This document shows, piece after piece, positions 1,630-15,998 of a DNA stretch of 64,000 nucleotides. Both the position numbers and the translations under genes were made by a program. The stretch is taken from the IMG/VR virus record IMGVR_UViG_3300048925_000129; one strand, written 5' to 3'. The first letter of the stretch is position 1; each line of letters starts with the position of its first letter. The stretch comes from a virus. Below the pieces are notes generated by a model, which was given only the letters and a program-made list of their open reading frames with translations, was not told the DNA's origin and ran no database searches.

Positions 1630-1650
1630 GTATTATTGATTTTTATTTCA

Positions 1651-1682
1651 CAAAGATAAGAAATTATTTTGTATTGTGCAAG
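1651..1682 (-). promoter_or_regulatory. Bacteroidota sigma-A type promoter
   Basis: Minus strand CTTG-N20-TATCTTTG, matching the -33 TTTG / -7 TAnnTTTG consensus. Confidence 0.7.
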
Positions 1683-1690
1683 TATATAAT

Positions 1691-1723
1691 AAAAAATCCT
1701 ACCCAATTCATTTTAGGTAGGAT
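1691..1723 (-). terminator. Intrinsic terminator ending the tRNA island transcript
   Basis: ATCCTACC/GGTAGGAT stem followed by a T-tract on the minus strand. Confidence 0.7.
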
Positions 1724-1742
1724 CATATAGTTAATTATGAAT

Positions 1743-1892
1743 TTAAAGGGAATCAATTTCCCTGAGTTGAGATTTCATTTTAGCTCTAAATTTTTCTTTA
1801 TGGAAAGGAGCCCAAATACCTTTGTGAGGCTTACATAGTTTGCAGCCACAACCTTTCTTTCGTTTTCTTTTATTATGTCTGTTAGGTCCCAA
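1743..1892 (-). CDS. Small basic CxxC protein, 49 aa (below ORF-track cutoff)
   Basis: TTG start; MGPNRHNKRKRKKGCGCKLCKPHKGIWAPFHKEKFRAKMKSQLREIDSL; overlaps the stop of the upstream gene. Confidence 0.6.
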   Translation of the reverse strand: MGPNRHNKRKRKKGCGCKLCKPHKGIWAPFHKEKFRAKMKSQLREIDSL

Positions 1893-2340
1893 TAGGTTTT
1901 GATATTATTTTATATGCTATTTCAACTAGGTCCATGTTATGAACCATTGTTACAACATCTTGTCTTCCAGGTCTGGTATATTTTTTATACAAAGCTTTAA
2001 AAGATCTATCAACTTGAATGTTGGAGACTTTCTCTTGAATCAGCCTTTGTAAGTCTTCTTTTTTAACTAGAAGCCATTTATTTTTAGTTTCAAATGCAAA
2101 AGCATCTGCCTTACCATAAGCCCATCCCGTGTTCCCTCTTACATTTTTAAGCTCAATAAAATTAAAGAGATTTGTAGGTTGATCATCGGATCTATTTATC
2201 CTCTTCATAGCTTTAACATCAAATTTTAAACCTTGGACCTCTACATCCCAATGCTCAAACATGTCTTGCTCTCTTGTTGGATAAACTATATTGCACCCTT
2301 TAAATAAACTAGCAAACTCTTTTTCCTTTTCTACTGACAT
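1882..2340 (-). CDS. PD-(D/E)XK-like phage nuclease
   Basis: E...HWD...FDVK motif plus IELKNVRGNTGW. Confidence 0.55.
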   Translation of the reverse strand: MSVEKEKEFASLFKGCNIVYPTREQDMFEHWDVEVQGLKFDVKAMKRINRSDDQPTNLFNFIELKNVRGNTGWAYGKADAFAFETKNKWLLVKKEDLQRLIQEKVSNIQVDRSFKALYKKYTRPGRQDVVTMVHNMDLVEIAYKIISKPIGT

Positions 2341-2357
2341 CTCTTATTTATTTTTAG

Positions 2358-2432
2358 TGGTCTAGGTGGGGATTGAACCCACGTCCTTCTGTTTATGAGA
2401 CAGTTGCTTCGAACCAACCGAGCTCCTAGACC
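2358..2432 (-). tRNA. tRNA-CAT (Met or Ile2)
   Basis: GGTCTAG/CTAGACC acceptor, anticodon loop CTCATAA, T-loop TTCAATC. Confidence 0.85.
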
Positions 2433-2468
2433 TTTTAACCAGGATTAGCTAAGGAATCTTTTCTTATG

Positions 2469-2540
2469 AACCCCCACCAGGAATCGAACCTGAATCGTCT
2501 GTTTAGAAGACAGATGCTCTATCCGTTGAGCTATGAGGGC
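2469..2540 (-). tRNA. tRNA-Arg(TCT)
   Basis: TCTGT-CTTCTAA-ACAGA anticodon arm, canonical D and T loops. Confidence 0.85.
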
Positions 2541-2751
2541 AAGTTTCGGTTGTTATGCAAAGACAACCTGTAGTTTAGCTGGTTTAATCAAGAAAAACCA
2601 ATTACTCATCTCGGAGGTTTAAAAACTTCACTGTTTTAAAGATGGGGAGAGGTCGTGACTACCAAACCTTATTCCATTCTTACTACCTACATACCTCAGG
2701 GCAGTTAAGAGAAAGTGATTTAACGTTACACTTATACACGGCTCTGCATTG

Positions 2752-2823
2752 TCCCGATACTAGGAATCGAACCTAGATTTCAACTTTATGAGAGTTGTGT
2801 AATAGCCACTATACCATATCGGA
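2752..2823 (-). tRNA. tRNA-CAT (Met or Ile2)
   Basis: CAACT-CTCATAA-AGTTG anticodon arm, CTAGG-TTCGATT-CCTAG T arm. Confidence 0.9.
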
Positions 2824-3014
2824 AGTTGAGGGCGTTAAGTTAATCAGACTAATACCCTCTTTTAATTTCTTGCTTCCATTTTTTAGGGAAAAGGAAGCAC
2901 CCTGCAACCAAACCTAAGTTTTTTGAACACAAAAACTCATAAAGTACCTCGTATGCCCAGTGTTATTTAACCTTACACACCTCACTCCAAGGCTGAACTA
3001 TTTCAAGGGATTTG

Positions 3015-3087
3015 TAGCTCCACCAGGACTCGAACCTGGATCTTCAGCTTATGAGACTGACGAGGTAACCTATTTCTCCATGTAGCA
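3015..3087 (-). tRNA. tRNA-CAT, initiator-like
   Basis: TCAGT-CTCATAA-GCTGA arm, mismatched 1:72 pair, fMet-like TGGAG...TCGTC D region. Confidence 0.8.
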
Positions 3088-3094
3088 ATATTAG

Positions 3095-3174
3095 AGCAGA
3101 GTTGTGGAATCGAACCACTAGTCTAGACTACCTTACTCTTCACGACTAAGACCCTGCCTTCGGGTGACTCTGCT
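3095..3174 (-). ncRNA. Atypical tRNA-like element (8-bp acceptor, long variable hairpin, non-canonical anticodon loop)
   Basis: AGCAGAGT/ACTCTGCT, D arm ACCC/GGGT, T-loop TTCGATT, anticodon region CGTGAAG lacks U33. Confidence 0.55.
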
Positions 3175-3185
3175 TATAAAAACTA

Positions 3186-3434
3186 CTACTCTATAAGAGC
3201 AGTAGTTGTATTGTTTTCTTTAATAATTTTTAATGACCCTTTAAACTGGAGGCTGCCTTTAGTATGACTACTGTCAGGGGTCTCCTTTGTTGTGAAGCCG
3301 ACTCTGGAATCTAGATGATCCACATAGTAAGTTTCACCTTTACACTTCACTACCCAGGCAGGAATGCTCTGGTCCTCGTTGTGTTTCTTATTGAAGTGGA
3401 ATACTATTCTGGAGCTATTACAAATTGTCTCCAT
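3186..3434 (-). CDS. Hypothetical protein
   Basis: 82-aa ORF, translationally coupled to the upstream gene, ends TAG TAG. Confidence 0.7.
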   Translation of the reverse strand: METICNSSRIVFHFNKKHNEDQSIPAWVVKCKGETYYVDHLDSRVGFTTKETPDSSHTKGSLQFKGSLKIIKENNTTTALIE

Positions 3435-3684
3435 ACTTCTCTACAAGTTTAGTCACATAAGATTCAGAAATTTCCTTTCTCTTTGTTGTTTGTCTCTCCT
3501 TTCCTTTCAGAACCGAGTAAGCCTGGAAGAGATGTCTAAGCTCATACCTGTTAGTTTCTCTTTCCGAAACTGGATTTGTAGATGTTCTTTCTCCTGTAAA
3601 GGATTGTTTAATCTGAGGCTTAAGAGTTTTCTGTGCCTCTGATAATGTTTTTATTGCTTGTCTGATTGTTTCAAATTTTTTCAT
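3418..3684 (-). CDS. Hypothetical basic protein
   Basis: 88-aa ORF with A-rich start, directly after the PTH2-like gene. Confidence 0.7.
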   Translation of the reverse strand: MKKFETIRQAIKTLSEAQKTLKPQIKQSFTGERTSTNPVSERETNRYELRHLFQAYSVLKGKERQTTKRKEISESYVTKLVEKYGDNL

Positions 3685-3691
3685 GATAATT

Positions 3692-4042
3692 TTAATTTAA
3701 TGTTAGATTAAGATTTTTAAATAAAGACTTGTGTTGAGATCTTGAGATTGCTTCGATGGCTACTGCCGTCATTTGGTTTCCTATGTCAGGTTCCAGGAAC
3801 TTATGATACTTGATTTCCAAGTCATCCAGTTTATGGAGTATCCTTTCAATTTTGGATTCCGAAGCTTCAAGACAACACAGGTAGTTACTACCCATCTGCC
3901 ACTGCTTAAATTCATCGTTAAACTTGACTGCAAAATCAGCCAATGCATGTGCACTTTGCACAACTTTGTAACCTGGAGTTAAATCATCTCTGGTGATGAT
4001 TGTCATAAACTCGTTACCTGTCTAAATACCTGTCTTTGTCAT
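3692..4042 (-). CDS. Peptidyl-tRNA hydrolase type 2-like protein; probable start at 4042 with in-frame TAG at 4022-4024 (alternative start 4006)
   Basis: IITRDDLTPGYKVVQSAHALADF...FLEPDIGNQMTAVAI resembles phage PTH2-like proteins; upstream in-frame MTKTGI*TGNEF. Confidence 0.75.
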
Positions 4043-4061
4043 AATATAAAACTTTTGGTTG

Positions 4062-4134
4062 TTCTTTCAACGGGATTCGAACCCGTGACACACAGTTTTA
4101 GAGACTGCTGTTCTAACCACTGAACTATGAAAGA
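4062..4134 (-). tRNA. Amber suppressor tRNA (anticodon CTA)
   Basis: TCTTTCA/TGAAAGA acceptor, GCAGT-CTCTAAA-ACTGT anticodon arm, ACGGG-TTCGAAT-CCCGT T arm. Confidence 0.9.
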
Positions 4135-4140
4135 ATATTG

Positions 4141-4203
4141 CTTCGTATAAGGACTCGAACCTCACCTGCTAACTGCCGTGCTCCCAATTACACCATCACG
4201 AAA
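4141..4203 (-). pseudogene. tRNA-like element with collapsed anticodon arm
   Basis: TTCGT/ACGAA acceptor, D arm TGGTGTAATTGGGAGCAC, T arm AGG-TTCGAGT-CCT, only ~15 nt between D and T arms. Confidence 0.55.
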
Positions 4204-4296
4204 AACTTATCTCTCCCACACGGCAATGCAGTTAAAATAAGATTGATATAAGTTAAGGAGGCTTGCCGACCAACCTTATTTGCCATCAATTTTTTG

Positions 4297-4368
4297 TAGT
4301 CCATAGGGGAGTCGAACCCCTCTTCTTAGATCGAAAATCTAATGTCCTAACCGATAGACGAATGGACC
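4297..4368 (-). tRNA. tRNA-Glu(TTC)
   Basis: TTAGA-TTTTCGA-TCTAA arm, AGGGG-TTCGACT-CCCCT T arm. Confidence 0.9.
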
Positions 4369-4373
4369 AAGTA

Positions 4374-5194
4374 CAAGCTACAGGTCTTGTTAGTTAATAT
4401 TCCACACCGAGTGCCTCAACCAAGGCTTTGGGAATCGAACCCTCTTCGTCTTTTTTCCAAATAAAAATGTTTTAAACTTTGTATTTGCTGTGTGTAGCTT
4501 TATCAAATTACCGTTTGATGTTAAAATTCCAATTTTTAGCTTTGTTTAATTTGCTGTAGGTAATTTTGTCAGATTGCATACTAAACGTGTGTTTGATTAA
4601 AATTCAAGTGTTTGTTTAATTTGCTGTTAGCAATCTTTTCAGAATAGTATGTTTGAGGATTTGAACCCCTTGAACTGTTTATGAGACAATTGTTTTAACC
4701 AAATTTTTTAGATTTGCTGTAACTATTCTTATCAAGTTTCTATTGTTTTTGGACTATTGCTCTACCAACTGAGCTACTGAAATCCTAAGACTCCAGAAGG
4801 GACTCGAACCCTTGACCCACAGTGTTACATTCCTAAATTTGCTGTTAGAAACTTTATCAAAACTCATTTTTTGTTTTATACGTTGTACTAACCACTATAC
4901 TATCTCCCAAATTTTTCTAGATTAACTTTGTTGGGAGAGGAGGAGTCGAACCTCCGTCTACGGCTCTGAATGCATAACTTTGTATTTGCTGTATGAGTTT
5001 TTATATATTCAGGTTACTTGGGGACGATAAAAGGTCCCGTTAAGTTAAGATTTAAGTCATTCTAGGACTTTCCTATACAATTTTACTTCTCACATACAGG
5101 ACCCGAAGTGTAGAGATGTCTGTGCTTTTGCATTCTACAGTTTCCGTTATTTGAATCAATTATAGTTGTGTGTTGTATTTGCTGATAGTAACCT
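4374..5194 (-). ncRNA. Tandem array of 7 Y-RNA-like ncRNA units
   Basis: Units 4375-4500, 4505-4566, 4571-4636, 4641-4729, 4734-4854, 4859-5001, 5011-5194; each closed by a different 7-9 bp terminal stem with (A/U)CAGCAAAU just inside the 5' strand; adjacent to the TROVE-like gene. Confidence 0.8.
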
Positions 5195-5207
5195 TATAAT
5201 AACACTG

Positions 5208-5239
5208 CAAAGATATGAAAACTTTTTGAGATATGCAAA
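5208..5239 (-). promoter_or_regulatory. Promoter driving the ncRNA array
   Basis: TTTG-N20-TATCTTTG ending 14 nt before the first unit. Confidence 0.8.
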
Positions 5240-5276
5240 TCTTGCAGTGTTAAATTTATGTTAAAGGATTTTCACC

Positions 5277-6953
5277 TTATAGAACTTCTACTCTTTGAAT
5301 CAGTTCCTGAGACAATGCCTCTCTCACTAATTCGGCTGCTGTTTTAATCTTGGTGTTAGTCAAGAATCCTACAGTGGTAGCAGAGTACCCACTGAAGTAG
5401 AATACGTTTTGAACGTCTCCGTAAGTTTCGAACTTCTCTCCAGTCCCTCTACCATAGTATCCTGACTGTAGGTTCCAAAGAACGATTACGAAGCTATCTA
5501 CATACTCTTTAGAGAACCCAGCTCTTCTCAAAGTTTCCTTTGCAGTTTCAACGTTAGTTTTACCTAATTGGCTTGGGTTAAATTCACTATCAGATATACA
5601 TAGGATTCCCGATGGGAAATCTTGTTCTGAAACTCCACTCTGTTTCAACCTAACGAATAGGTTAATTACTGATTGGAAGTTAGTACCCCCAATGTAAGAA
5701 GAGTGATCATTCTTCCATTTGTCTACTGGAGTTTGACCTTTCCAGGTATGCATCTGAGCATCAGAGTTGAACTCGATCCATGCATTTGCAAACTTACCAG
5801 TTAAGAACTCAGAGAAGTAAAGGGCAAGTGCTTTACCAATATCGTAGCAGCTCATCTTAGTTCCAGTAGCTACACTACTCATTGAACCAGATGTATCTCT
5901 TACAACAATTAGATTAGTCTGTCCAGATTCACCACCTTTTTGAACAAGAGTAGTAAACTGCTTGTTAATGGTTTCAACTTCATTAGGAGTAACTGATCTT
6001 CTAGACTGCTTACCTAGACCTTCGAATAACTCGTGAACGAATCCAGTATACTTCACCTCCTTAGTTTCTGGAGCCTTGATCCACTCTGCATACTTGTCAG
6101 AAAGTTTCTGGTTAAATAGGAACTTACCTTGAACAAGTTTTGAAAGAGCTCTACCATGAACTTTGTTGAAGTCAATTCTATCAAATTGCTTTGTAGAGAT
6201 TAGCTTCTGCCATTCATGAGCTGTACCAGAAGTTTTTAACTTTCTGTACTGCTTGTAAGTAGAACCTGCATTTTCTTTAGTACCAAACACAAGTGAGCAG
6301 ATCCACTTTGCAATCATTGTATCAGCCTGAGCTTCTACAGTTTTACAAGATGATTTAGCCTTGATTTGTGGCAAATACTTCTTAATTAAATCACTGGTGT
6401 TTGAATTTTCTAATCCTGAAAGGATAAGTTCACCAAACTTTTTCCAGTTTAATTTTCTTCCGTTCCAACCGTGATGAACAAGGTCATAAGAAAGCATCGT
6501 GAAGATATCTTTCCATGATCCTGCTGAGATCATCAATCCTACGTTAGCCCAGAAAGTTTTTTCATCCTTGAAGTGTAACCATAAGAATCTCATGATACCT
6601 TCATGTCTTAGCTCACCTCCTTTTTGTGATTCGGCAGTCATAGTACCATCTTGATACATTGTCTGTCTTGAGATCATTCTTAAGAAGATAGAGAAAGCTA
6701 CTGCATCCCACTTATCATCTGCCCATAACATTTCGGCATCTCTGGTGATATCCTGGAAAGATCTTGGTGCTTTGAATTTACCCATAACTCCGAACTGGTC
6801 AACTAATGTTGAACCTGTTGAGGAATATTTTAGGGCTCCGTTCCCTGATAGTGTTTCTGCTCCTTTCTTTAAAGATGCATTAACGAATGCAGATGTTGCT
6901 TGTGTGTTTTTTGGAGTTACCTCGAATAAACTTTTTTGTTTGCTGTCGAACAT
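5277..6953 (-). CDS. TROVE-like/vWA protein (DUF2828 family, Ro60-related)
   Basis: N-terminal SGNGALKYSSTG..LVDQF, GSWKD, KKYLP, YRKL motifs; C-terminal vWA MIDAS DTSGS, GGTNF, ISDSEF, IVLWN. Confidence 0.8.
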   Translation of the reverse strand: MFDSKQKSLFEVTPKNTQATSAFVNASLKKGAETLSGNGALKYSSTGSTLVDQFGVMGKFKAPRSFQDITRDAEMLWADDKWDAVAFSIFLRMISRQTMYQDGTMTAESQKGGELRHEGIMRFLWLHFKDEKTFWANVGLMISAGSWKDIFTMLSYDLVHHGWNGRKLNWKKFGELILSGLENSNTSDLIKKYLPQIKAKSSCKTVEAQADTMIAKWICSLVFGTKENAGSTYKQYRKLKTSGTAHEWQKLISTKQFDRIDFNKVHGRALSKLVQGKFLFNQKLSDKYAEWIKAPETKEVKYTGFVHELFEGLGKQSRRSVTPNEVETINKQFTTLVQKGGESGQTNLIVVRDTSGSMSSVATGTKMSCYDIGKALALYFSEFLTGKFANAWIEFNSDAQMHTWKGQTPVDKWKNDHSSYIGGTNFQSVINLFVRLKQSGVSEQDFPSGILCISDSEFNPSQLGKTNVETAKETLRRAGFSKEYVDSFVIVLWNLQSGYYGRGTGEKFETYGDVQNVFYFSGYSATTVGFLTNTKIKTAAELVREALSQELIQRVEVL

Positions 6954-6982
6954 CTTATTATGATTTTTGGTTAATTTTTGAT

Positions 6983-7279
6983 TTAGTTTTTACCATTTCC
7001 CTTTTCTGGAAATTTATGAATTCTAATTGGAAGAAATCCTAATTCTTCACATAAGTTTCTTAAAACTTCTAACTTAGAATCATCTCCTTTTTCTATTTTC
7101 CCATCAAACAAAGCTTCAATTACTTCTCCATCTCCTAAGGAAATAAATCCATTTTGAATATGTCTTTCAGCTAGAAGTGAATATGCTTGAATTTTTGCCT
7201 GAAACTTTACCTGCTCTTTGTTAGCTTCTAATTGAATTCTAATTAGTTCTGCTTGTCTATAAAACTCTTGATCTGTCAT
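6983..7279 (-). CDS. Hypothetical protein (start revised to MTDQEF)
   Basis: Track start at 7309 lies inside the promoter at 7299-7330. Confidence 0.6.
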   Translation of the reverse strand: MTDQEFYRQAELIRIQLEANKEQVKFQAKIQAYSLLAERHIQNGFISLGDGEVIEALFDGKIEKGDDSKLEVLRNLCEELGFLPIRIHKFPEKGNGKN

Positions 7280-7298
7280 TTGTTTAATTATTACTTTG

Positions 7299-7330
7299 CA
7301 AAGATACAAAAAGTTTTCTTAATATGCAAA
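7299..7330 (-). promoter_or_regulatory. Bacteroidota-type promoter for the TROVE operon
   Basis: TTTG-N20-TATCTTTG. Confidence 0.75.
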
Positions 7331-7498
7331 TTTATTTTGTTAAAGTTTTGTTAAAGTTTTTCGATTATAGAGAAGACAATAAAAATTATGTTCTCAACTG
7401 GTATGTTATAAATCCATCTCATAGTATGTAAAATAAAAAATGTTGCTAATATAAGACTTCACATACTAACAACATTCAATCTACCTTCTTGTAGTTTG

Positions 7499-7570
7499 TG
7501 TGATAACGGGACTCGAACCCTGACTACCAATTTCACAGGTTGGCATGCTAACCTTTACATCATTATCACC
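7499..7570 (-). tRNA. tRNA-His(GTG)
   Basis: CCAAC-CTGTGAA-ATTGG arm, T-loop TTCGAGT. Confidence 0.85.
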
Positions 7571-7627
7571 ATATAAAGTATCTTTTATTTAAGGGGTTGA
7601 AAGATACAAAACTATCCCTAATTTTAT

Positions 7628-8020
7628 TTAGTAGTTCACTACTCTTACTGGTTTACCAAGATTTTTCATGAGGTCTATCATATTTTTTGTTCCTCTACTC
7701 TTGCCATCCCAAAAAGCTATAAGTACATCTCCTACTTCGGACATCTCTTCATTCCTAATTGGACCAGCAGCATTCCCATACATTTTCCAGTCGGCTGGCA
7801 TAGGAATAACATTGTGATTACTCTCAGCAGCATAAAGCTCTCCAAGTCCATCTGCTCCAAAGACATTAATACCATCTGATGTGGTAAAAGTCTTGGTTCC
7901 CGTGGAGCATCTTCCTGAAACTATTTCGATGTCTCTATGATTCCTAAGGAAATTATCACATTTTGTTTTAACGAGACGATAATCATTCAGATCTCTGCCT
8001 CCTGCTATTATGACTTTCAT
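7628..8020 (-). CDS. SLOG-family protein (DUF2493/YspA-like)
   Basis: KVIIAGGRD, IVSG, GADGLGE, AAGPIRNEEM, AFWDGKSRGTKNMI. Confidence 0.85.
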   Translation of the reverse strand: MKVIIAGGRDLNDYRLVKTKCDNFLRNHRDIEIVSGRCSTGTKTFTTSDGINVFGADGLGELYAAESNHNVIPMPADWKMYGNAAGPIRNEEMSEVGDVLIAFWDGKSRGTKNMIDLMKNLGKPVRVVNY

Positions 8021-8442
8021 TAGGCTTCAGCAATTGCTTGCTTGATCTCATCAGCTTTATTAATACCTTTACACTCCTTGTTGATCATACCAAATAGTTT
8101 ACCTTCGTGGATGCCTGGATTATCTTCTTTAGTTTGTTTAACCAAAGACACTAATTCAGAATAGGTTAAGGCCTGAGGTAAGTACGACTCAAGAACTTTT
8201 AATTCTGATTCTTCCTTAACAGCAAGATCTATTCTTTTAGAAAGAGTGTAGGCATCAATAGATTGATTCCTTTTCTTAATTTCCCTAGAGATAAGTTTCG
8301 TAACTTCATCTTCAGTTAAATCTCTTCTTAAAGCTATTTTCTCGTTGTCTACTACACTTATTAAAAGTGACAGGGTTGTTTTTGCTACTATATCTTTTGC
8401 CTTTAAAGCTTTTACGTAGTCTTGTCTGATCTTTGATTCCAT
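8020..8442 (-). CDS. YqeY/GatB-domain tRNA-binding protein
   Basis: KALKAKD...EIKKRNQSIDAY..SKRIDLAVKEESELKVLESYLPQ. Confidence 0.85.
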   Translation of the reverse strand: MESKIRQDYVKALKAKDIVAKTTLSLLISVVDNEKIALRRDLTEDEVTKLISREIKKRNQSIDAYTLSKRIDLAVKEESELKVLESYLPQALTYSELVSLVKQTKEDNPGIHEGKLFGMINKECKGINKADEIKQAIAEA

Positions 8443-8469
8443 TTTACTTTTGTTTTAATTATTGATTAG

Positions 8470-8540
8470 TGCAGGTAGGGAGAATCGAACTCCCGACTAA
8501 ACATTGGAAGTGTCCCGTGATACCACTTCACCACACCTGC
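8470..8540 (-). tRNA. tRNA-Gly(TCC); 5' half overlaps the HNH gene 3' end
   Basis: GCAGGTG/TACCTGC acceptor, loop CTTCCAA, GGGAG-TTCGATT-CTCCC T arm. Confidence 0.85.
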
Positions 8541-8958
8541 CTATTCTTTCCTGATAATGTAAGTCCCTATGACAGTTGGAACATAAAACCTCACATTTCT
8601 CTATTTCTTTTAATGCTCTAGATTTAGAACCACTCTTAAACAGAGCTCCAACTTCAGTATCCTTCTCGTCTGGATTAATATGGTGAAAATCTAAGACCCA
8701 CCATCTATCCTCTGGACATCTATTACATTTTAAATTTTTCTTTATTTCGAAAAATTCTTCCATAGAAGTTTGTCTATAAGCTTTAGATTTAGAAATATAT
8801 TTAGCTTTGTTAGCTTCATAATGTTTCTTTCTATATTCTTTCTGACATTCTCTACATTGCCACTGTAGAATTGTTTTTGTTTTCAATTTTTTAGTAGCAA
8901 AAAACTCTTCTGTCTCTGGTAATTCTTTTTTACAAGAACCACATATCTTCGTACACAT
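8497..8958 (-). CDS. HNH homing-type endonuclease with N-terminal Zn finger
   Basis: CGSC...CREC; CNRC...LDFHHINP.EK...EIEKCEVLCSNCHRDLH; start revised to MCTKIC, downstream of promoter 8974-9005. Confidence 0.85.
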   Translation of the reverse strand: MCTKICGSCKKELPETEEFFATKKLKTKTILQWQCRECQKEYRKKHYEANKAKYISKSKAYRQTSMEEFFEIKKNLKCNRCPEDRWWVLDFHHINPDEKDTEVGALFKSGSKSRALKEIEKCEVLCSNCHRDLHYQERIGRCGEVVSRDTSNV

Positions 8959-8973
8959 ATTTATTAATTTATA

Positions 8974-9005
8974 CAAAGATACAAAAAAGGTATCGAACTT
9001 CCAAA
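8974..9005 (-). promoter_or_regulatory. Promoter of the HNH cassette
   Basis: TTTG-N20-TATCTTTG. Confidence 0.7.
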
Positions 9006-9022
9006 CACATAAAATTAATTAT

Positions 9023-9065
9023 TAGGCTTGGAAGGCTAGAGTATTAACCACTATACGATACCTGC
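9023..9065 (-). pseudogene. Orphan 5' half of tRNA-Gly(TCC)
   Basis: GCAGGTA TCGTATAGTGGTTAATAC T CTAGC CTTCCAA GC, then AT-rich sequence with no T arm. Confidence 0.8.
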
Positions 9066-9160
9066 AATTATAATAGACCATCATACTCTCACTAATGTGA
9101 TTCGTGCACCTGATATACCTTGGGTATATAAGTAGATAGTTTTAGGGGCAACTATTATTG

Positions 9161-9234
9161 TCTCCAGTATAGGATTTGAACCTATGACAACTTCCTTATC
9201 AGAGAAGTGCTCTACCAGACTGAGCTAACTGGAG
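9161..9234 (-). tRNA. tRNA-Ile(GAT)
   Basis: CTCCAGT/ACTGGAG acceptor, loop CTGATAA. Confidence 0.9.
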
Positions 9235-9259
9235 TTAAACCAGGTTTCCCTGGTATGTT

Positions 9260-9496
9260 TTATTTTTTATAGTGAATGTAAGATTTCACTCCTTTCATGG
9301 CTGCATCTTCTACAAGCCTCAAAGCTAAAGTTTTCAAACTCAAAATTTCAGAAGCTTCGTCTGGATTTAAATCTGCTGTCACATTATCATTAATGTAGTC
9401 GAAAAGCTCAATAGCTCTTTGTTTAATTCCATCAATTACTCCTTCACCTGAAGGGTTGAAATCACCAATTCTTTTTTGTCCTAAAGTTTTTTCCAT
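9260..9496 (-). CDS. Acb2/Tad1-like helical-hairpin anti-defence sponge candidate
   Basis: TLGQKRI..FNPSG...IDGIKQRAIEL...LALRLVEDAAM.GVK pattern. Confidence 0.55.
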   Translation of the reverse strand: MEKTLGQKRIGDFNPSGEGVIDGIKQRAIELFDYINDNVTADLNPDEASEILSLKTLALRLVEDAAMKGVKSYIHYKK

Positions 9497-10257
9497 TATA
9501 TATCTTTTCTTGTTACAATAAAATCTTCTATTGAGTTATCCTCTTCTAAAATTAGCTTACCAAATCCTGGAGCTATAATAAAATGTGTCCTATCATTTTG
9601 GTCTTCAGCAGGAATAATATCTGAAAAACCTGATTTTTTTGAAATTTCCATTTGGTCTTTAGTAAGTAGATAGATAAGTTCCATTAACTTCAAGTGGTTA
9701 GTTTTAACTTCCATTACTCTTTCTGTCCAAGGAATATGTCTTCCAGTATAATACACAAAGTGAATATGATTCCTTAATGTACCTCTTATATCAGTTTCAT
9801 CTGGATAAGGTTCTGTATTAAATCCATGTGAATGCCACATGTATTCACCTTTATCATTGGTTTCTTTATACTCAACATATAATTTACCCGTTTCACCAGC
9901 ATAGTACCTTTTCAAAACTTCTTCATGTTGTTTAGAAACATCAAATTGTACAGTATCAAATAAGTTTCCAGTAGAAGAATATTCTCCTAATACAAAACCA
10001 ATTCTTATCCATTTATCTGTACTTTGGATATCTTCTTTTGCTAAATAGACATCAGGATCAGTTGTTACTAACACAACTGCTTTAGCATCTTCAGTGACTA
10101 TAAATTGAACACCGTACATGGCATCATCTGTATAAACAGTATTTGGATCACTGAATATTCCTTTGAATATCTCTATTGGAATTCTAGATCCATCAATACC
10201 TAAGTAAATACTTGGGTCTCTTCCTTCTTTTTCTTTGTAAAATCTTTCTCGTATCAT
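9496..10257 (-). CDS. Hypothetical protein
   Basis: 253-aa ORF coupled to both neighbours. Confidence 0.75.
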   Translation of the reverse strand: MIRERFYKEKEGRDPSIYLGIDGSRIPIEIFKGIFSDPNTVYTDDAMYGVQFIVTEDAKAVVLVTTDPDVYLAKEDIQSTDKWIRIGFVLGEYSSTGNLFDTVQFDVSKQHEEVLKRYYAGETGKLYVEYKETNDKGEYMWHSHGFNTEPYPDETDIRGTLRNHIHFVYYTGRHIPWTERVMEVKTNHLKLMELIYLLTKDQMEISKKSGFSDIIPAEDQNDRTHFIIAPGFGKLILEEDNSIEDFIVTRKDI

Positions 10258-10463
10258 TTGTTAAAAATTTCATCTGAAAATAAATCAAGAATCCTATCTG
10301 GTTCTCCCCAATCGTGACCTCCATATTTGTGCACTTTAAACTCTTCAAAAGAGGCTATATTATAACCCTCTTGACCATGAATTACTTTTAGGTAAATAAA
10401 TCTTAATCTATACCACCAGTAAACCCTGAATTTATCATACTCATCTAATTCCTGAAATTTCAT
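10254..10463 (-). CDS. Hypothetical protein
   Basis: 69-aa ORF immediately after promoter-like motif 10468-10499. Confidence 0.6.
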   Translation of the reverse strand: MKFQELDEYDKFRVYWWYRLRFIYLKVIHGQEGYNIASFEEFKVHKYGGHDWGEPDRILDLFSDEIFNK

Positions 10464-10521
10464 TTTACAAATTTAAGAAACTTTTTTGACATGTGCAAGT
10501 TTTTAACAAACTTTAACATTG

Positions 10522-10593
10522 TAGACCTACTAGGATTCGAACCTAGATACCCTGAGTCAAAGTCAGGTGTACTAACCGTTGTACGATAGGTCT
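10522..10593 (-). tRNA. tRNA-Gln(TTG)
   Basis: CCTGA-CTTTGAC-TCAGG arm. Confidence 0.9.
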
Positions 10594-10596
10594 GTT

Positions 10597-10670
10597 TGGA
10601 GCCCAGAACAGGATTCGAACCTGTGTACCTAGTTTTGCAGACTAGTGTCTAACCACTCGACCACCTGGGC
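10597..10670 (-). tRNA. tRNA-Cys(GCA)
   Basis: CTAGT-CTGCAAA-ACTAG arm, U73, encoded CCA. Confidence 0.9.
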
Positions 10671-10676
10671 AGCTTG

Positions 10677-10748
10677 AGCCTCTATCAGGAATCGAACCCG
10701 AATCTCAAGATTACAAATCATGTATAATAGCCGTTATACTACAGAGGC
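10677..10748 (-). tRNA. tRNA-Thr(TGT)
   Basis: GCCTCTG/TAGAGGC acceptor, loop TTTGTAA. Confidence 0.88.
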
Positions 10749-10752
10749 AAAT

Positions 10753-10793
10753 AAAAAATCCCTTGCAAAGTCGGTTGAGGATTCACAAGGGAT
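10753..10793 (-). terminator. Attenuator terminator B, directly upstream of tRNA-Thr
   Basis: ATCCCTTGTGAA/TTTGCAAGGGAT 12-bp stem plus T-tract. Confidence 0.85.
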
Positions 10794-10825
10794 AGAAATT
10801 TATAAAAAATAAATTTGTGTATTGT

Positions 10826-10915
10826 CTATTCATAAATGACATCAGACAAAATCATCCCTGTTGAGTGCCCCTGGCAGCCAATAGTTATCTCGATATGTTG
10901 TCTAGTTGTTGTCAT
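10826..10915 (-). CDS. Leader peptide B (29 aa): MTTTRQHIEITIGCQGHSTGMILSDVIYE*
   Basis: A-rich start context, lies between promoter and terminator; first 17 codons are only M,T,R,Q,H,I,E,G,C. Confidence 0.8.
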   Translation of the reverse strand: MTTTRQHIEITIGCQGHSTGMILSDVIYE

Positions 10916-10935
10916 TGTTTAAATTTTTACTTCTG

Positions 10936-10967
10936 CAAATATACAAAATGTTTTTGACATATGCAAA
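10936..10967 (-). promoter_or_regulatory. Promoter for leader B / tRNA block B
   Basis: TTTG-N20-TATATTTG. Confidence 0.8.
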
Positions 10968-10998
10968 TTTCTAAAAGAAATTATTAGTTAAAGTTTTG

Positions 10999-11220
10999 TT
11001 AAAAATAATAATACCAGTATTCATCGTGGAATAGCTGCATTTCTTGTTTTAAATTAATCTGCTTTTGGTGCTTATACATCCTATTGCCCTCACAAATGTT
11101 GCATCCACCATTATGTTCACAGAATTTAGATGGTCTTGTTCTGCTTCCATCTCTTACTGTTTTTAAGTGGTTAACACCCATCCATCTATGCTGAGATGGT
11201 TTTCTATAAGTTCTACTCAT
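10999..11220 (-). CDS. Small Cys/His-rich hypothetical protein
   Basis: MSRTYRK...CEHNGGCNICEGNR. Confidence 0.7.
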   Translation of the reverse strand: MSRTYRKPSQHRWMGVNHLKTVRDGSRTRPSKFCEHNGGCNICEGNRMYKHQKQINLKQEMQLFHDEYWYYYF

Positions 11221-11236
11221 AAAAATAATTTAAGTG

Positions 11237-11320
11237 AGGAAGACAGAGAGCACGATTCCCAGACCCTGAGGTCCCATTTGTTTAGCAAACAAAGTCTATA
11301 CCCCGATAGATTTAACTTCC
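11237..11320 (-). tRNA. tRNA-Ser(GCT), somewhat degenerate
   Basis: TTTGT-TTGCTAA-ACAAA arm, long variable arm, atypical T-loop. Confidence 0.7.
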
Positions 11321-11328
11321 ATAATATG

Positions 11329-11409
11329 AGGAGGAAGTGGGACTCGAACTCTCAGACCCAGAGGGTCACAGTTTTCAAGACTGCTGCAATACCATTCTGC
11401 CAATCCTCC
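11329..11409 (-). tRNA. tRNA-Ser(TGA), chimeric-looking T stem
   Basis: GCAGT-CTTGAAA-ACTGT arm, GACCC/GGGTC variable arm, mismatched T stem GAGAG/CCCAC. Confidence 0.8.
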
Positions 11410-11415
11410 GAATTG

Positions 11416-11772
11416 TTATTTTACAAAGATAGCCGTCTTACCAATAACTTCGTCTATATTTAGGTAGACAATTCTATCTTCTTTTTGTATATAGATGGCT
11501 AAAATGTCAAACTCATCAACTTCTATTTTATAGATAGTATTAGTATTTTTGTTTGATCTAATTCTTCTTAGCTCTATGTTATATTTGCCCAAACTATTTG
11601 GATCTTTGATAGTTGATTTAACAGATACTCTTTTAGACTCTCCATCTTTATAGATGAACAAATCAAAAGGTGCTTTACCACTCACTTGATTAAAAATGTG
11701 ATAACCTTTACTAGCTAAATCAGCCATTACTTTAATCTCACCTAATTGAGAATACATTGTTTTATTATCCAT
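11416..11772 (-). CDS. PD-(D/E)XK homing-type endonuclease (I-Ssp6803I / PDDEXK_5-like)
   Basis: GEIKVMADL..KGY.IF....GKAPFDLFIYKDG..KRVSVKST...FDILAIY. Confidence 0.75.
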   Translation of the reverse strand: MDNKTMYSQLGEIKVMADLASKGYHIFNQVSGKAPFDLFIYKDGESKRVSVKSTIKDPNSLGKYNIELRRIRSNKNTNTIYKIEVDEFDILAIYIQKEDRIVYLNIDEVIGKTAIFVK

Positions 11773-11799
11773 AGCTCTTCATCCAGCCAGATTCCCTCC
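11773..11799 (-). pseudogene. Probable orphan 5' fragment of a tRNA-Ser
   Basis: GGAGGGAATCTGGCTGGATGAAGAGCT directly abuts the endonuclease ATG; GGAGGGA pairs with the 3' acceptor strand TTCCTCC of the downstream tRNA-Ser. Confidence 0.55.
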
Positions 11800-11856
11800 A
11801 ATTAAAAGCCCCAGAAATTGTGCATGCAAGCAAAGGCATCTGGGGGATTGATATTT

Positions 11857-12369
11857 TTATTTTAGCAAGTACTGCTCCCAATCTTTAGGAATTGTACCTA
11901 GATGTTTTATAAACATCAAGTAATGTGGTCTTTTAGGATTTGGATGTTCCTTACCCCACTCTTCTATTGTTAAGTCATTTTTTTCCGAGTTACACGGTTT
12001 ACATGCAGTAACTAAGTTGTCCCAAGTGTCTTTTCCACCTTTCGATTTAGGAATAACGTGGTCGATAGTCATTGCTCTTATTTCGTCTTCTCCACAATAC
12101 ACACAAGTGTAGTTATCTCTTTTGAAAACATTGTCCCTGTTACAAGGAACTTTGTGGATATCCAGGTTAATGAACCTTGGAACCCTGATAACTGATGGTC
12201 TGAAGATCTCTAAATCTGGATTAACCAAACCAAACTTCTCTGGGTGTTCATGCAGGATGTCTGCATTACCCTTAAGAGAAACTACATAAGCTCTTTCAGA
12301 TGTCACAATTTGTCTGGGTAAGTACTGTGAATCTAACACCAAGCACTTACGAAAATCTACTTTTTTCAT
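11857..12369 (-). CDS. HNH endonuclease (McrA-like); start revised to MKKVDF
   Basis: CLVLDSQY, NVFKRDNYTCVYCG, TIDHVIPKSKGG..TWDNLVTACKPCNSEK; track extension overlaps tRNA-Leu. Confidence 0.85.
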   Translation of the reverse strand: MKKVDFRKCLVLDSQYLPRQIVTSERAYVVSLKGNADILHEHPEKFGLVNPDLEIFRPSVIRVPRFINLDIHKVPCNRDNVFKRDNYTCVYCGEDEIRAMTIDHVIPKSKGGKDTWDNLVTACKPCNSEKNDLTIEEWGKEHPNPKRPHYLMFIKHLGTIPKDWEQYLLK

Positions 12370-12389
12370 TGTTACACTTTTTTGATTAG

Positions 12390-12470
12390 TACTGATAGTA
12401 GGACTCGAACCTACACCCCTTTCGGGAACAGTTTCTAAGACTGCCGTGTCTACCATTCCACCATACCAGC
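12390..12470 (-). tRNA. tRNA-Leu(TAG)
   Basis: GCAGT-CTTAGAA-ACTGT arm, long variable arm. Confidence 0.9.
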
Positions 12471-12586
12471 ATTTCCCCTAATTGCTTTTTGATACCAACC
12501 ACTGTCAGGCTATGAACCTTCATAAGTCAAGGGGATCGAACCCTTAGTTCATCAATATCCTACTACTTCAATTTGGATAGGATTTG

Positions 12587-12666
12587 TACTCCCACTGGGA
12601 CTCGAACCCAGACCCCGAAGGATAAGATTTTAAGTCTTACGTGTCTACCAATTCCACCATGAGAGC
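12587..12666 (-). tRNA. tRNA-Leu(TAA)
   Basis: TAAGA-CTTAAAA-TCTTA arm. Confidence 0.9.
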
Positions 12667-12672
12667 ATTTTG

Positions 12673-12745
12673 TGGACCGACAGGGGATCGAACCCTGGTT
12701 TAAAGTTTGCAAAACTTTGGTTTTAGCCAATTAAACTACCAGCCC
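12673..12745 (-). tRNA. tRNA-Ala(TGC)
   Basis: Loop TTTGCAA, G3:U70 pair present. Confidence 0.9.
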
Positions 12746-12747
12746 AA

Positions 12748-13023
12748 TTATTTATTATCTTTGTTTCTTCCAATGTGATACCCATCACAGAAGACACATT
12801 TGTAAGTGCTAAAGTGCACTCCTTTCTTTTTCCCCATACTAATTGCTGACTTCAAAGCAGTCTCCTTGGTATTATACATAACCTTAGGCTTACCTGTATC
12901 TGCCCTCTGATGAGAATTTTTATGGAACATTCCCCAGGCATTTCTGGTAATAAAGAAATTTTTAATGAATCTCTTGAGTGGAAGCTGATCCTTCAATGCT
13001 ATTACTATGTTCTTTAGTTTCAT
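12748..13023 (-). CDS. Small Zn-ribbon protein
   Basis: YKCVFCDGYHIG. Confidence 0.7.
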   Translation of the reverse strand: MKLKNIVIALKDQLPLKRFIKNFFITRNAWGMFHKNSHQRADTGKPKVMYNTKETALKSAISMGKKKGVHFSTYKCVFCDGYHIGRNKDNK

Positions 13024-13231
13024 ACTCTCCTTTTATAATTCTTACTATGTCCTTTGGTGATACTACTGTGCATCGTTTCATTACATCTTGAATTCTACCT
13101 TTAGGTATATCGTAATGATTTTTATGAAACCAGCAAATGTTGATCCCAAGGTCTCTAGCCATTTTATGCAGATTCTGTTTAGAATATGGCAAGCAGACTA
13201 GATGTCTTTTGTTATCACAAATATATTTCAT
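12962..13231 (-). CDS. DUF4031-like protein
   Basis: HLV......LHKMARDLGI...WFH..HYDIP. Confidence 0.65.
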   Translation of the reverse strand: MKYICDNKRHLVCLPYSKQNLHKMARDLGINICWFHKNHYDIPKGRIQDVMKRCTVVSPKDIVRIIKGEYETKEHSNSIEGSASTQEIH

Positions 13232-13233
13232 TG

Positions 13234-13304
13234 TACCTCGTAAAGGAATCGAACCTTTTCCACTTGTATGTAAGACAAGGAAGCTACCGTTACATCAACG
13301 AGGC
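13234..13304 (-). tRNA. tRNA-Val(TAC)
   Basis: CTTGT-CTTACAT-ACAAG arm. Confidence 0.88.
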
Positions 13305-13365
13305 ATACAACTATGTGAGTCCTAACTAAACTTATCTCACTTTTACTGGAACCCGTAGGTAGTTT

Positions 13366-13563
13366 TTAAATGTTGTTATTCCAGGTTCTATATCCTGTGG
13401 AAGGGTCAGTATCGACTTTCTTTCCAACAAATGTTATCTCCCAGAATTCTTCACCCAACTCTAGTAGTTGAACAAAATTTCCTTTCTTGGCATGTTTAGA
13501 ATCAATCCAGCATTGTGTGAATTCTTCTTTGCCTTTTTTCTTAAATGTGCATTGTGCCCACAT
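13366..13563 (-). CDS. Hypothetical protein
   Basis: 65-aa ORF with A-rich start between tRNAs. Confidence 0.65.
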   Translation of the reverse strand: MWAQCTFKKKGKEEFTQCWIDSKHAKKGNFVQLLELGEEFWEITFVGKKVDTDPSTGYRTWNNNI

Positions 13564-13580
13564 AACTTTAATTTTTACTG

Positions 13581-13654
13581 TGCCCCCAGAAGGACTCGAA
13601 CCTTCAGTCTACATCTTAAAAGGATGTTGCTTTAACCAATTCAGCTATAGGAGC
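13581..13654 (-). tRNA. tRNA-Lys(TTT)
   Basis: ACATC-CTTTTAA-GATGT arm. Confidence 0.9.
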
Positions 13655-13766
13655 TTTTCTTTCGATTTAGAGCAGAAATCGAACCCGAAACATATACTGC
13701 CTAGATTTCTTAATCCCCGAAAACGACCTTGCCTCAAGGCTTACAGCTTTAACTGATGGATTTTTG

Positions 13767-13838
13767 TCGGGTAGACAGGACTCGAACCTGCATCCTCTTG
13801 CTTCCAATGCAAGTAATCGACCATTGATATACTACCCG
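13767..13838 (-). tRNA. tRNA-Pro(TGG)
   Basis: CGGGTAG/CTACCCG acceptor, loop ATTGGAA. Confidence 0.9.
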
Positions 13839-13845
13839 TAATATG

Positions 13846-13927
13846 TGAGGCATGTAGGATTCGAACCTACTCAGCAATTGCAACTGTTTTACAGACAGTC
13901 TCAGCTCTCCAACTCTGACGATACCCC
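13846..13927 (-). tRNA. tRNA-Tyr(GTA)
   Basis: ACTGT-CTGTAAA-ACAGT arm, long variable region. Confidence 0.9.
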
Positions 13928-13935
13928 GTTTAAAT

Positions 13936-14013
13936 TGGTGGGTCCACTGGGAATCGAACCCAGTCCTACAGTTTTTCAGACTATCGTGCAGACCTTAATT
14001 ACACCTTAGACCC
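13936..14013 (-). tRNA. tRNA-Phe(GAA)
   Basis: ATAGT-CTGAAAA-ACTGT arm, encoded CCA. Confidence 0.9.
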
Positions 14014-14065
14014 AATCGTACAGTTACGTTTCCAAATAGGAAAGAGGCTTGACTGTACATCATTG

Positions 14066-14138
14066 AGGGAGAAGTGGGATTCGAACCCACACAAATCGAC
14101 TTAACAGGTCGGTGCTCTACCATTACAGCTATTCTCCC
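14066..14138 (-). tRNA. tRNA-Asn(GTT)
   Basis: CCGAC-CTGTTAA-GTCGA arm. Confidence 0.9.
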
Positions 14139-14151
14139 GAATAAAAATTTG

Positions 14152-14223
14152 CACGTCCCACAGGATTCGAACCCGTACCAAAAGTTTTGGAGACTCCTAT
14201 GCTACCATTAACACCAGAGACGT
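14152..14223 (-). tRNA. tRNA-Trp(CCA)
   Basis: GGAGT-CTCCAAA-ACTTT arm, G73. Confidence 0.88.
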
Positions 14224-14230
14224 ATGTTTG

Positions 14231-14306
14231 CCGTGATAGAGGGATTCGAACCCTCGTTTTTGAAGAGTGACAGTCTAAATCCCCATCCAATGGAGCATAT
14301 ACCACG
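14231..14306 (-). tRNA. tRNA-Asp(GTC), irregular D arm
   Basis: Loop CTGTCAC, GAGGG-TTCGAAT-CCCTC T arm. Confidence 0.75.
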
Positions 14307-14314
14307 AGTTATAT

Positions 14315-14352
14315 AAAAATAAAAATCCCTACGAATTTTACTAAGTAGGGAT
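14315..14352 (-). terminator. Attenuator terminator A, directly upstream of tRNA-Asp
   Basis: ATCCCTAC/GTAGGGAT stem followed by TTTTATTTTT. Confidence 0.85.
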
Positions 14353-14385
14353 ATTAATCAAAAAAACTAAAACTATGAACCAAAA

Positions 14386-14502
14386 TCATGTTTGTGTGCT
14401 TTTACTTAATCCTACTATTGTAGAGCTATTATCCCATAACTTATCTGCCCCCAGTACACTAGGGTTAAAGGCAAACGAATAAAAGTTATAAGAGTTTTTC
14501 AT
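14386..14502 (-). CDS. Leader peptide A (38 aa): MKNSYNFYSFAFNPSVLGADKLWDNSSTIVGLSKSTQT*
   Basis: A-rich start, lies between promoter and terminator; codons 2-27 contain all 11 amino acids of the downstream tRNA block and only one other (Gly). Confidence 0.82.
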   Translation of the reverse strand: MKNSYNFYSFAFNPSVLGADKLWDNSSTIVGLSKSTQT

Positions 14503-14520
14503 TGTATATTTTTTACTTTG

Positions 14521-14621
14521 CAAAGATATGAAATTAATTTCACATATGCAAATTTAATTGGTTAAATTTTTGTTAAATTTTTAGTAATGCAAAGATAGGA
14601 AATAAAATCCAAAAAAGCAAA
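14521..14621 (-). promoter_or_regulatory. Two tandem promoters for leader A / tRNA block A
   Basis: TTTG-N20-TATCTTTG at 14521-14552 and 14590-14621. Confidence 0.8.
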
Positions 14622-14637
14622 TACATAAAACTTTTTA

Positions 14638-14847
14638 TTAAAAGTATTCTTCATCAATGAAGAAATCCTCTTCATCTTCCTCCTCATCAATAAGGTGTAG
14701 TAGAGACTCATCTAAGTTTGAGTAAATACTACTGAACAAGGTTTTATCCTTATCCCAAATTCCAGTAGCTTCTGGTAAAACTGATTCCAGTTCACCTGAG
14801 TCCAGGAATGTATCATACAGATCTCTAAGTTTTGGGTTGTTCTCCAT
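14638..14847 (-). CDS. Small acidic hypothetical protein
   Basis: 69-aa ORF with D/E-rich tail. Confidence 0.7.
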   Translation of the reverse strand: MENNPKLRDLYDTFLDSGELESVLPEATGIWDKDKTLFSSIYSNLDESLLHLIDEEEDEEDFFIDEEYF

Positions 14848-15912: not shown

Positions 15913-15998
15913 GTTGTAAACTTTTTATTAATTAGTTATTTATTAGATTGCAAATGTACAACTTTATTTTGACATATGCAAATACATAAAAGTTAATT

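Follow-up and report, generated by a model that had tools for sequence, protein, structure and literature searches.

In enterobacteria, multivalent attenuators sample several amino acids through one leader, with Ile, Leu and Val in the ilvGMEDA leader and Thr and Ile in the thr leader. The pheST synthetase is controlled through a Phe-rich leader, and T-boxes, which work without a ribosome, bind uncharged transfer RNA (tRNA) directly. The usual view holds phage tRNA genes to be codon-usage helpers or spares against tRNA-cleaving host defences, and to our knowledge little has been described of how their expression is controlled. Here, we analyze two cassettes, A and B, in a stretch of viral DNA of 64,000 nucleotides (nt) from IMG/VR record IMGVR_UViG_3300048925_000129, hereafter called the window. 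Each carries a short leader open reading frame (ORF) and a terminator ahead of a block of tRNA genes. We consider it probable that cassette A is a ribosome-mediated (leader-peptide) transcription attenuator gating the 13 tRNA genes of block A, based on its composition, its variation among relatives and its computed folds.

Cassette A resembles the ilvGMEDA and thr leaders in several respects: a short leader, predicted to be translated, lies between a promoter and an intrinsic terminator, it holds codons for more than one amino acid, and an alternative helix involves the 5′ arm of the terminator. It differs in preceding tRNAs rather than biosynthetic enzymes, in sampling 11-12 amino acids, mostly with 1-4 codons each, where the ilv and thr leaders have runs of 2-3 amino acids, and in lacking a predicted effective protector helix, its untranslated state being predicted to read through. 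As with pheST, other aminoacyl-tRNA synthetase leaders and T-boxes, genes of translation supply would be controlled by the charging or availability of specific tRNAs. Three of the elements by which an attenuator is recognized are present, namely an ORF (predicted to be translated) between promoter and tRNAs, codon enrichment, and a predicted intrinsic terminator. A cmscan of positions 1500-14700 (E up to 1) gave no match to T-box or to the Rfam leader families (Trp_leader, His_leader, Leu_leader, Thr_leader and others); there was no match of any kind in the leader-terminator stretch, and hits elsewhere were mostly tRNA-related. A full-text literature search, with most subscription journals outside its coverage, returned no report of leader-peptide control of tRNA genes.

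Organization of Cassette A

The phage is crAss-like, as indicated by a weak Crass_capsid match, a UvsX-like recombinase, a DNA polymerase exonuclease subunit and a G+C content of 34%. A scan of the window for the Bacteroidota-type promoter pattern TTTG-N19-21-TAnnTTTG gave 15 matches against 1.8 expected, a further indication of this identity. All features of cassette A are on the minus strand, where two such promoters are followed by a 38-codon ORF, a hairpin with a U-run, and tRNA-Asp; these parts and their order are read directly from the sequence. Four variants of the leader are known, from the window and from the relatives L001, L003 and L041. The features are as follows, in coordinates of the window; MFE stands for minimum free energy and bp for base pairs.

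14590-14621, minus: promoter-like site P_A1 (TTTG-N20-TATCTTTG, Bacteroidota -33/-7 type), from the pattern scan
14521-14552, minus: promoter-like site P_A2 (TTTGCATATGTG...TATCTTTG), from the pattern scan
14386-14502, minus: leader ORF A, 38 codons plus TGA (ATG at 14502, TGA at 14386), with coding-like substitutions; peptide MKNSYNFYSFAFNPSVLGADKLWDNSSTIVGLSKSTQT
14422-14499, minus: matched ("sensing") block, codons 2-27 (2-25 in L003 and L041), from residue composition
14432-14493, minus: structured domain within the matched block, with helix H1 formed by UCUUAUAACUU (14493-14483) and AAGUUAUGGGA (14442-14432), from MFE folds
14464-14449, minus: hairpin H2, CCCUAG/CUGGGG, codons 13-18, inside H1, from MFE folds
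14411-14424, minus: hairpin H3 (UCUAC-AAUA-GUAGG), weak and local, from folds
14406-14416, minus: candidate antiterminator 5′ strand AGUAGGAUUAA (DNA AGTAGGATTAA), codons 29-33, with the conserved core AGUAGG at 14416-14411
14353-14410, minus: hairpin H4, long and imperfect, with the UGA stop in its apical stem, from folds
14344-14357, minus: candidate antiterminator 3′ strand UUAAU-[AUC]-CCUACU, overlapping the terminator 5′ arm
14352-14345, minus: terminator 5′ arm ATCCCTAC
14325-14352, minus: terminator hairpin AUCCCUAC-12 nt-GUAGGGAU, 8 bp, -9.9 kcal/mol, from folding
14314-14324, minus: U-run U5AU5 of the terminator, from sequence
14230-14306, minus: tRNA-Asp(GTC), first gene of block A, 8 nt past the U-run; relaxed ARAGORN, and Rfam at 26.2 bits with a threshold of 29
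11236-14306, minus: tRNA block A, with Asp, Trp, Asn, Phe, Tyr, Pro, Lys, Val, Ala, Leu(TAA), Leu(TAG), Ser(TGA) and Ser(GCT), from ARAGORN and Rfam

P_A2 is of the same class as the promoter of leader B and several ordinary gene promoters of this phage. The ATG of leader A lies 18 nt past the -7 box, and in ordinary genes of this phage the distance is 15-20 nt in four cases and 38 nt in one. No Bacteroidota-type promoter was matched by the pattern scan between 14521 and 10967, and none inside block A, so the 13 tRNAs of the block would depend on read-through of terminator A.

Due to its 12-nt loop, terminator A falls outside a simple terminator scan. The hairpin, loop included, is identical at 27 of 28 positions between the window and L003, while ~40% of the synonymous sites of the leader changed. 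The motif pair ATCCCT...AGGGAT is present at the two cassettes only. H1 is an 11-bp long-range helix that joins codons 4-7 with codons 21-24 and encloses H2. In H2, a C-G pair has become U-A through compensatory synonymous changes, and one U.G has become U-A. These two helices perhaps pace the ribosome or the polymerase. The core of H3, CUAC-N4-GUAG, is present in all four variants; this hairpin is a possible anti-antiterminator, too weak to win in the folds.

Small ORFs lie between the 13 tRNA genes of block A, which serve D, W, N, F, Y, P, K, V, A, L and S (set A). Default ARAGORN and Rfam yielded Trp, Asn, Tyr, Pro, Lys, Val, Ala, Leu(TAA), Leu(TAG) and Ser(TGA), with Phe added by Rfam; Asp(GTC), Phe(GAA) and Ser(GCT) come from ARAGORN at a relaxed threshold. 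Among the relatives, the cloverleaf of tRNA-Asp has three compensatory pairs. For tRNA-Ser(GCT), two relatives show an acceptor stem with two compensatory changes and a conserved UUGCUAA loop. The Leu and Ser genes are located as follows.

12586-12666, minus: tRNA-Leu(TAA), default ARAGORN
12389-12470, minus: tRNA-Leu(TAG), default ARAGORN
11328-11409, minus: tRNA-Ser(TGA), default ARAGORN
11236-11320, minus: tRNA-Ser(GCT), relaxed ARAGORN threshold, with no Rfam match

Leader A Is Composed Largely of the Amino Acids Served by Block A

In the matched block only Gly18 falls outside set A, and the block includes every one of the 11 members of the set. With 25 of 26 residues (2-27) in the set, the composition has a probability of ~8e-6 under the phage's own amino-acid frequencies, in which set A accounts for 0.605. 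Among the 360 ATG ORFs of at least 20 amino acids in the window, leader A ranks first for set A, with a value of 26 against 20 for the runner-up. Most amino acids occur just once or twice in the leader. A protein search gave no family match and no named homologue.

Compared with L003, codons 1-25 of the window show 13 nt differences, of which 10 are at third positions; nine codons have changed synonymously and two are replaced. Because of this pattern, the comparison indicates that leader ORF A evolves as a coding sequence. The replacements Y8N, A11Y and A11P remain within set A, and full coverage of the respective set is kept in every variant of both leaders.

A first-pass annotation of this DNA had pointed out that leader A uses both Leu families (CTG, TTA) and both Ser families (TCT/TCG, AGT/AGC). 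This was confirmed, with CTG at codon 17, TTA at 22 and 32, TCT at 4 and 27, TCG at 9, AGT at 15 and 33, and AGC at 26 and 35, and it is kept in all four variants. The further suggestion of an isoacceptor-level match is right as to the codons and the tRNAs, but it carries no statistical weight (P ~0.37, given phage codon usage) and leans on the low-scoring tRNA-Ser(GCT). It is in amino-acid composition that the leader departs from chance, not in its use of codon families nor in the bare complementarity described below.

A Second Leader Covers the Remaining Nine Amino Acids

Cassette B lies on the same strand and has the same layout.

10749-10967, minus: cassette B, with promoter, 29-codon leader, antiterminator and terminator, then tRNA-Thr
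10913-10824, minus: leader B, MTTTRQHIEITIGCQGH..., 29 codons
L001:12451-12629, L003:7830-8009 and L041:4837-5014: cassette B in the relatives

Block B consists of Thr, Cys, Gln, Ile, Gly, His and Glu tRNAs, three tRNAs with a CAT anticodon, an Arg tRNA and a CUA suppressor, and serves the remaining nine amino acids. Residues 1-17 of leader B are only M, T, R, Q, H, I, E, G and C, with all nine represented. The probability of these residues all falling in the set is ~3.5e-7, coverage not counted, and leader B ranks first for its set among the same 360 ORFs (16 against 7 for the runner-up). The split of the 20 amino acids between the leaders thus mirrors that between the tRNA blocks, and the joint chance of the two compositions is below 1e-10. 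The partition into sets A and B was set by gene order and not post hoc.

Leader B has also varied more freely in its residues. Six replacement events were found in 17 codons (T2I, T4I, R5T, I10R, I8T and H17Q), all of them in the set, where the expected fraction is 0.36. Five of 16 residues changed non-conservatively (R to T, I to R, T to I), again all within the set, and the sole Arg shifts from codon 5 to codon 10 among variants. The antiterminator of cassette B, in which AGGGA plus 2-4 nt pairs with UCCCU and its 5′ flank, has four of nine pairs changed on both sides among four variants. These double changes were matched by 6 of 500 shuffles, and slid controls reached at most 64% paired cells. 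Two pairs of terminator B likewise have changes on both sides.

The stop codons of the leaders are unusual for this phage. Leader A ends in the rare TGA, and TAA ends 31 of the 35 long ORFs. Leader B ends in TAG (10824-10826) in all four variants, and block B has a tRNA with a CUA anticodon (amber suppressor, 4061-4134); suppression of this TAG would take a ribosome through terminator B. Recoding of TAG or TGA as the source of the unusual stops was rejected, no long ORF gaining more than 60 amino acids with TAG read as sense. In L003, a tRNA-Met(CAT) gene (L003:7750-7821) lies between promoter B and leader B, so the leader messenger RNA would follow a tRNA there.

A weak class II tRNA-like element was found at 3094-3173 on the minus strand; its acceptor stem has 7 bp, its variable arm is long and its anticodon loop is odd (c-g-tga-a-g). 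It is called Ser(TGA) by relaxed ARAGORN only, and matches Rfam tRNA-Sec at 26.9 bits, below threshold. If it were a working Ser tRNA, the two-block partition would be blurred.

Ribosome Position and the Fold of the Terminator 5′ Arm

The helix AGUAGG:CCUACU is, in our folds, the best candidate for the antiterminator of cassette A. The first-pass annotation had noted that 14406-14416 is complementary to UUAAU-[AUC]-CCUACU (14344-14357), which overlaps the 5′ arm of the terminator, and this is borne out by the sequence. The 6-bp core is conserved and stacks on the base of H4. The AUUAA:UUAAU extension is out of register in the relatives, where other pairs are used instead.

Folding with modelled ribosome footprints was carried out both on the full-length RNA and on transcripts ending just before the 3′ arm of the terminator. 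In the shorter transcripts the antiterminator is the MFE fold in all four variants, with additional pairs extending into the terminator loop and an 11-bp version in L003. The probability P that the 5′ arm is paired is 0.65-0.8 without a ribosome or while the ribosomal aminoacyl (A) site is on codons 1-24/25; once this site is on codons 27-38, most values in the window, L001 and L003 are 0.1-0.3. Varying the footprint edge from +9 to +15 nt leaves the boundary of this predicted switch at codons 24-26, where the matched block ends (at codon 25 in both L003 and L041, and at 27 in the window and L001). That the pairing is kept in four variants and is positioned to match the end of the block also appears, as far as these models go, to exceed bare chance pairing.

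The free energy gained by terminator formation changes from ~10 kcal/mol with a ribosome on codons 28-39 to 3.6-6 kcal/mol with no ribosome or one at codon 25 or earlier; for Escherichia coli trpL the values are 13.5 versus 12.0 kcal/mol. The antiterminator is therefore competitive in these calculations, and that of trpL looks less so by the same measure. In the antiterminated state CUCUAC can pair with the freed 3′ arm, and this state lies, in the full-length RNA, 2.4-4.8 kcal/mol above the terminated one.

In transcripts lacking the 3′ arm, trpL gives P of 0.08 generally, rising to 0.73 for A sites at the second Trp codon and the one after it, and thus behaves as a textbook attenuator in the same script. 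As in trpL, sequestration of the 5′ arm in the nascent transcript of cassette A is predicted to depend on ribosome position, and the terminator is favoured at equilibrium. Unlike trpL, whose antiterminator is freed only by stalls at two Trp codons and which terminates with no ribosome, cassette A would form its antiterminator with no ribosome or with one at any position up to codon 25, and would lose it only to a ribosome on the last 12 codons. An effective protector helix was not found: H3 loses to the antiterminator in all ribosome-free folds of transcripts lacking the 3′ arm, where P of the paired 5′ arm is 0.65-0.75, and the untranslated state is therefore predicted to read through.

These folds bear on two further points of the first-pass annotation. 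It had proposed that a ribosome stalled in the sensing codons frees the antiterminator segment, and in silico a ribosome on codons 1-25 does leave AGUAGG and H4 free (constrained folds, four variants). It had also placed the masking of 14406-14416 by the ribosome at the stop codon. When the A site is on UGA, however, the footprint covers ~14403-14376 and misses this segment, the masking falling in the model during codons 26-38. Its observation is thus confirmed, and its interpretation appears to be partly supported.

Proposed Mechanism

If cassette A is an attenuator, transcription would start at P_A2 (and P_A1) and a ribosome would load at AUG 14502. Codons 2-25/27 would sample each amino acid that has a downstream tRNA gene, plus Gly. 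As the polymerase advances, H4 would form and CCUACU would pair with AGUAGG at its base, making the antiterminator the default. With the ribosome delayed in codons 2-25, or absent, the 5′ arm would stay sequestered while the 3′ arm and the U-run are made, and the polymerase would read through into tRNA-Asp and the other 12 tRNAs. Under fast decoding, a ribosome on codons 26-38 would melt AGUAGG and H4, the 8-bp terminator would form and transcription would stop. The net feedback would be that phage tRNAs are made when the phage's own codons are decoded slowly. We infer the stalling, the ribosome-polymerase coupling and the physiological trigger; the alternative folds and their dependence on ribosome position are computed predictions. 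A default-ON logic would suit a sensor spread over 25 codons because any delay leaves the antiterminator in place and only a ribosome past all test codons removes it.

Should this reading be right, the phage would measure decoding speed directly and make tRNAs on demand. Classic attenuation would gain tRNA genes as a new kind of target, a sensor reading 11-12 amino acids and a protector-free logic, and would do so in Bacteroidota-type phages, where transcription-translation coupling is little studied. The element is small (~240 nt) and readily testable, and since the two leaders split all 20 amino acids, this phage offers a very clean case for experiments. Further cases could be sought by the rule that the composition of a mini-ORF equals the tRNA set behind a terminator.

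Evidence Weighed against Other Explanations

Several observations count against cassette A being such an attenuator. In the full-length equilibrium fold the terminator wins at every ribosome position (P ~0.85-0.96). In the same test trpL is flat at 0.97, so this test cannot reject an attenuator, and we discarded it for that purpose. In transcripts lacking the 3′ arm, the 5′ arm of L041 is paired again (0.7-0.95), with other partners, when the A site is on codons 30-37, so that this variant lacks the predicted OFF window. Once the A site has reached the stop codon, re-pairing of the 5′ arm is predicted with P of 0.25-0.84 depending on the variant (0.69-0.84 in L003 and L041). The position-dependent antiterminator is the MFE fold in all variants, but its core shows no covariation, five pairs being invariant and one changing A to G with G.U kept, and mononucleotide shuffles of the upstream leader often pair the arm, as strongly as the real sequence in 22% of cases for the window and 14% for L003. 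The tRNA-Ser(GCT) and tRNA-Asp genes score under the usual thresholds. In the leader itself, the out-of-set Gly18 is conserved, and N3T in L001 is a replacement outside set A. L041 keeps the full leader though its tRNA-Asp (L041:866-1040 region) is a truncated remnant located right after the terminator, and its 6.6-kb contig lacks the Pro, Lys, Ala, Leu(TAG) and Ser tRNAs; this suggests that leader composition may lag behind tRNA gene losses. Conservation as such is weak evidence, with just four close variants of leader A found in 5.8 billion protein clusters and two DNA collections.

Despite many synonymous changes, 22 of 24 leader A residues are identical between the window and L003, which exceeds what a constraint on composition alone would need; helices H1 and H2 explain this in part. 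The leader could then be an ordinary small phage protein gene with a functional peptide, followed by a leaky terminator (an 8-bp stem with a 12-nt loop is weak) through which the tRNAs are made by constitutive read-through, and the composition match would be a by-product or coincidence. The retention of the leader in L041 while tRNAs were lost would also fit. This explanation seems to us improbable in view of the joint chance of the two compositions, of the non-conservative but in-set changes at 5 of 16 residues in leader B, of the covariation of antiterminator B, and of the failure of the protein search to return a family or a named homologue. Somewhat less improbable, though still unlikely in our judgement, is an attenuator that reports ribosome activity in general (host shut-off, ribosome-targeting toxins, antibiotics) rather than particular aminoacyl-tRNAs. 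Read-through is predicted both with no ribosome and for a stall anywhere in 25 codons, and amino acids that mostly occur only 1-2 times would give a weak codon-specific sensitivity, all of which such a sensor accommodates. It would leave unexplained why the leaders divide the 20 amino acids exactly as the tRNA blocks do, and why replacements stay in set with full coverage.

The attenuator could also work through another helix or by the classical logic. The segment GGGAU (14435-14431), from conserved Trp-Asp codons, is invariant and complementary to AUCCC, with which it might pair once H1 opens; alternatively, H3, with its CUAC-N4-GUAG in all variants, could be a true protector, such that only stalls at codons 23-25 antiterminate. 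Masking of H3 (A site on codons 24-25) lowers the equilibrium P of the terminator to 0.85 for the window and to 0.76 for L041. We give either version little credence. GGGAU:AUCCC is used in no fold, constrained or unconstrained, H3 has 4-5 bp only and loses to the antiterminator in every fold of transcripts lacking the 3′ arm, and a sensor of codons 23-25 would leave a 25-codon matched block unexplained. The leader-peptide attenuator with AGUAGG:CCUACU as its candidate antiterminator remains our preferred reading.

A broader version of the attenuator reading takes the two cassettes together as a decoding checkpoint for 20 amino acids, which we put forward only tentatively. Each leader would act as a default-ON timer until fully translated, and depletion of any single host tRNA would switch on the replacement set within one transcription round. 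Anticodon nucleases, other tRNA-targeting defences, starvation or codon-usage mismatch could be the source of the depletion. The rare stops would tune the dwell of the ribosome at the end of each leader, UGA in A and UAG in B, whose block carries the CUA suppressor tRNA.

Relatives and Other Features of the Window

The protein search with leader A returned three clusters among the 5.8 billion, and DNA and neighbour searches returned two contigs from IMG/VR and a handful of short ones from ENA and Logan. A search with the neighbouring 270-amino-acid protein led to one contig. The recombinase search gave 39 loci, with the array on two contigs only. Scans of viral contigs with 17-mers gave chance matches apart from the two known contigs, and a scan of a single metagenome gave 69 chance matches and no real cassette. 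The crAss-like phage cr7_1 has one tRNA and no array, and is uninformative as an independent example. The L041 contig carries several HNH endonuclease genes; its low coverage leaves room for an assembly artefact.

Both leaders and several other genes are preceded by promoters of a subclass whose upstream box is extended and similar to TTTGCATATGTCAAAA; this subclass possibly represents one temporal class. Its members are listed here.

5208-5239, minus: extended-box promoter
7299-7330, minus: extended-box promoter
10936-10967, minus: extended-box promoter
14521-14552, minus: extended-box promoter (P_A2)
15951-15982, minus: extended-box promoter
49436-49467, plus: extended-box promoter

A third cassette was looked for at the remaining promoters of this class and rejected, these heading ordinary ORFs or RNA genes. 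Finally, a sub-threshold Rfam match to YrlA (Y RNA-like) was found at 4730-4841 on the minus strand (39.4 bits, with a gathering score of 69). It adjoins the ORF at 5277-6953 and lies downstream of its 558-amino-acid protein, which has a DUF7788 match.

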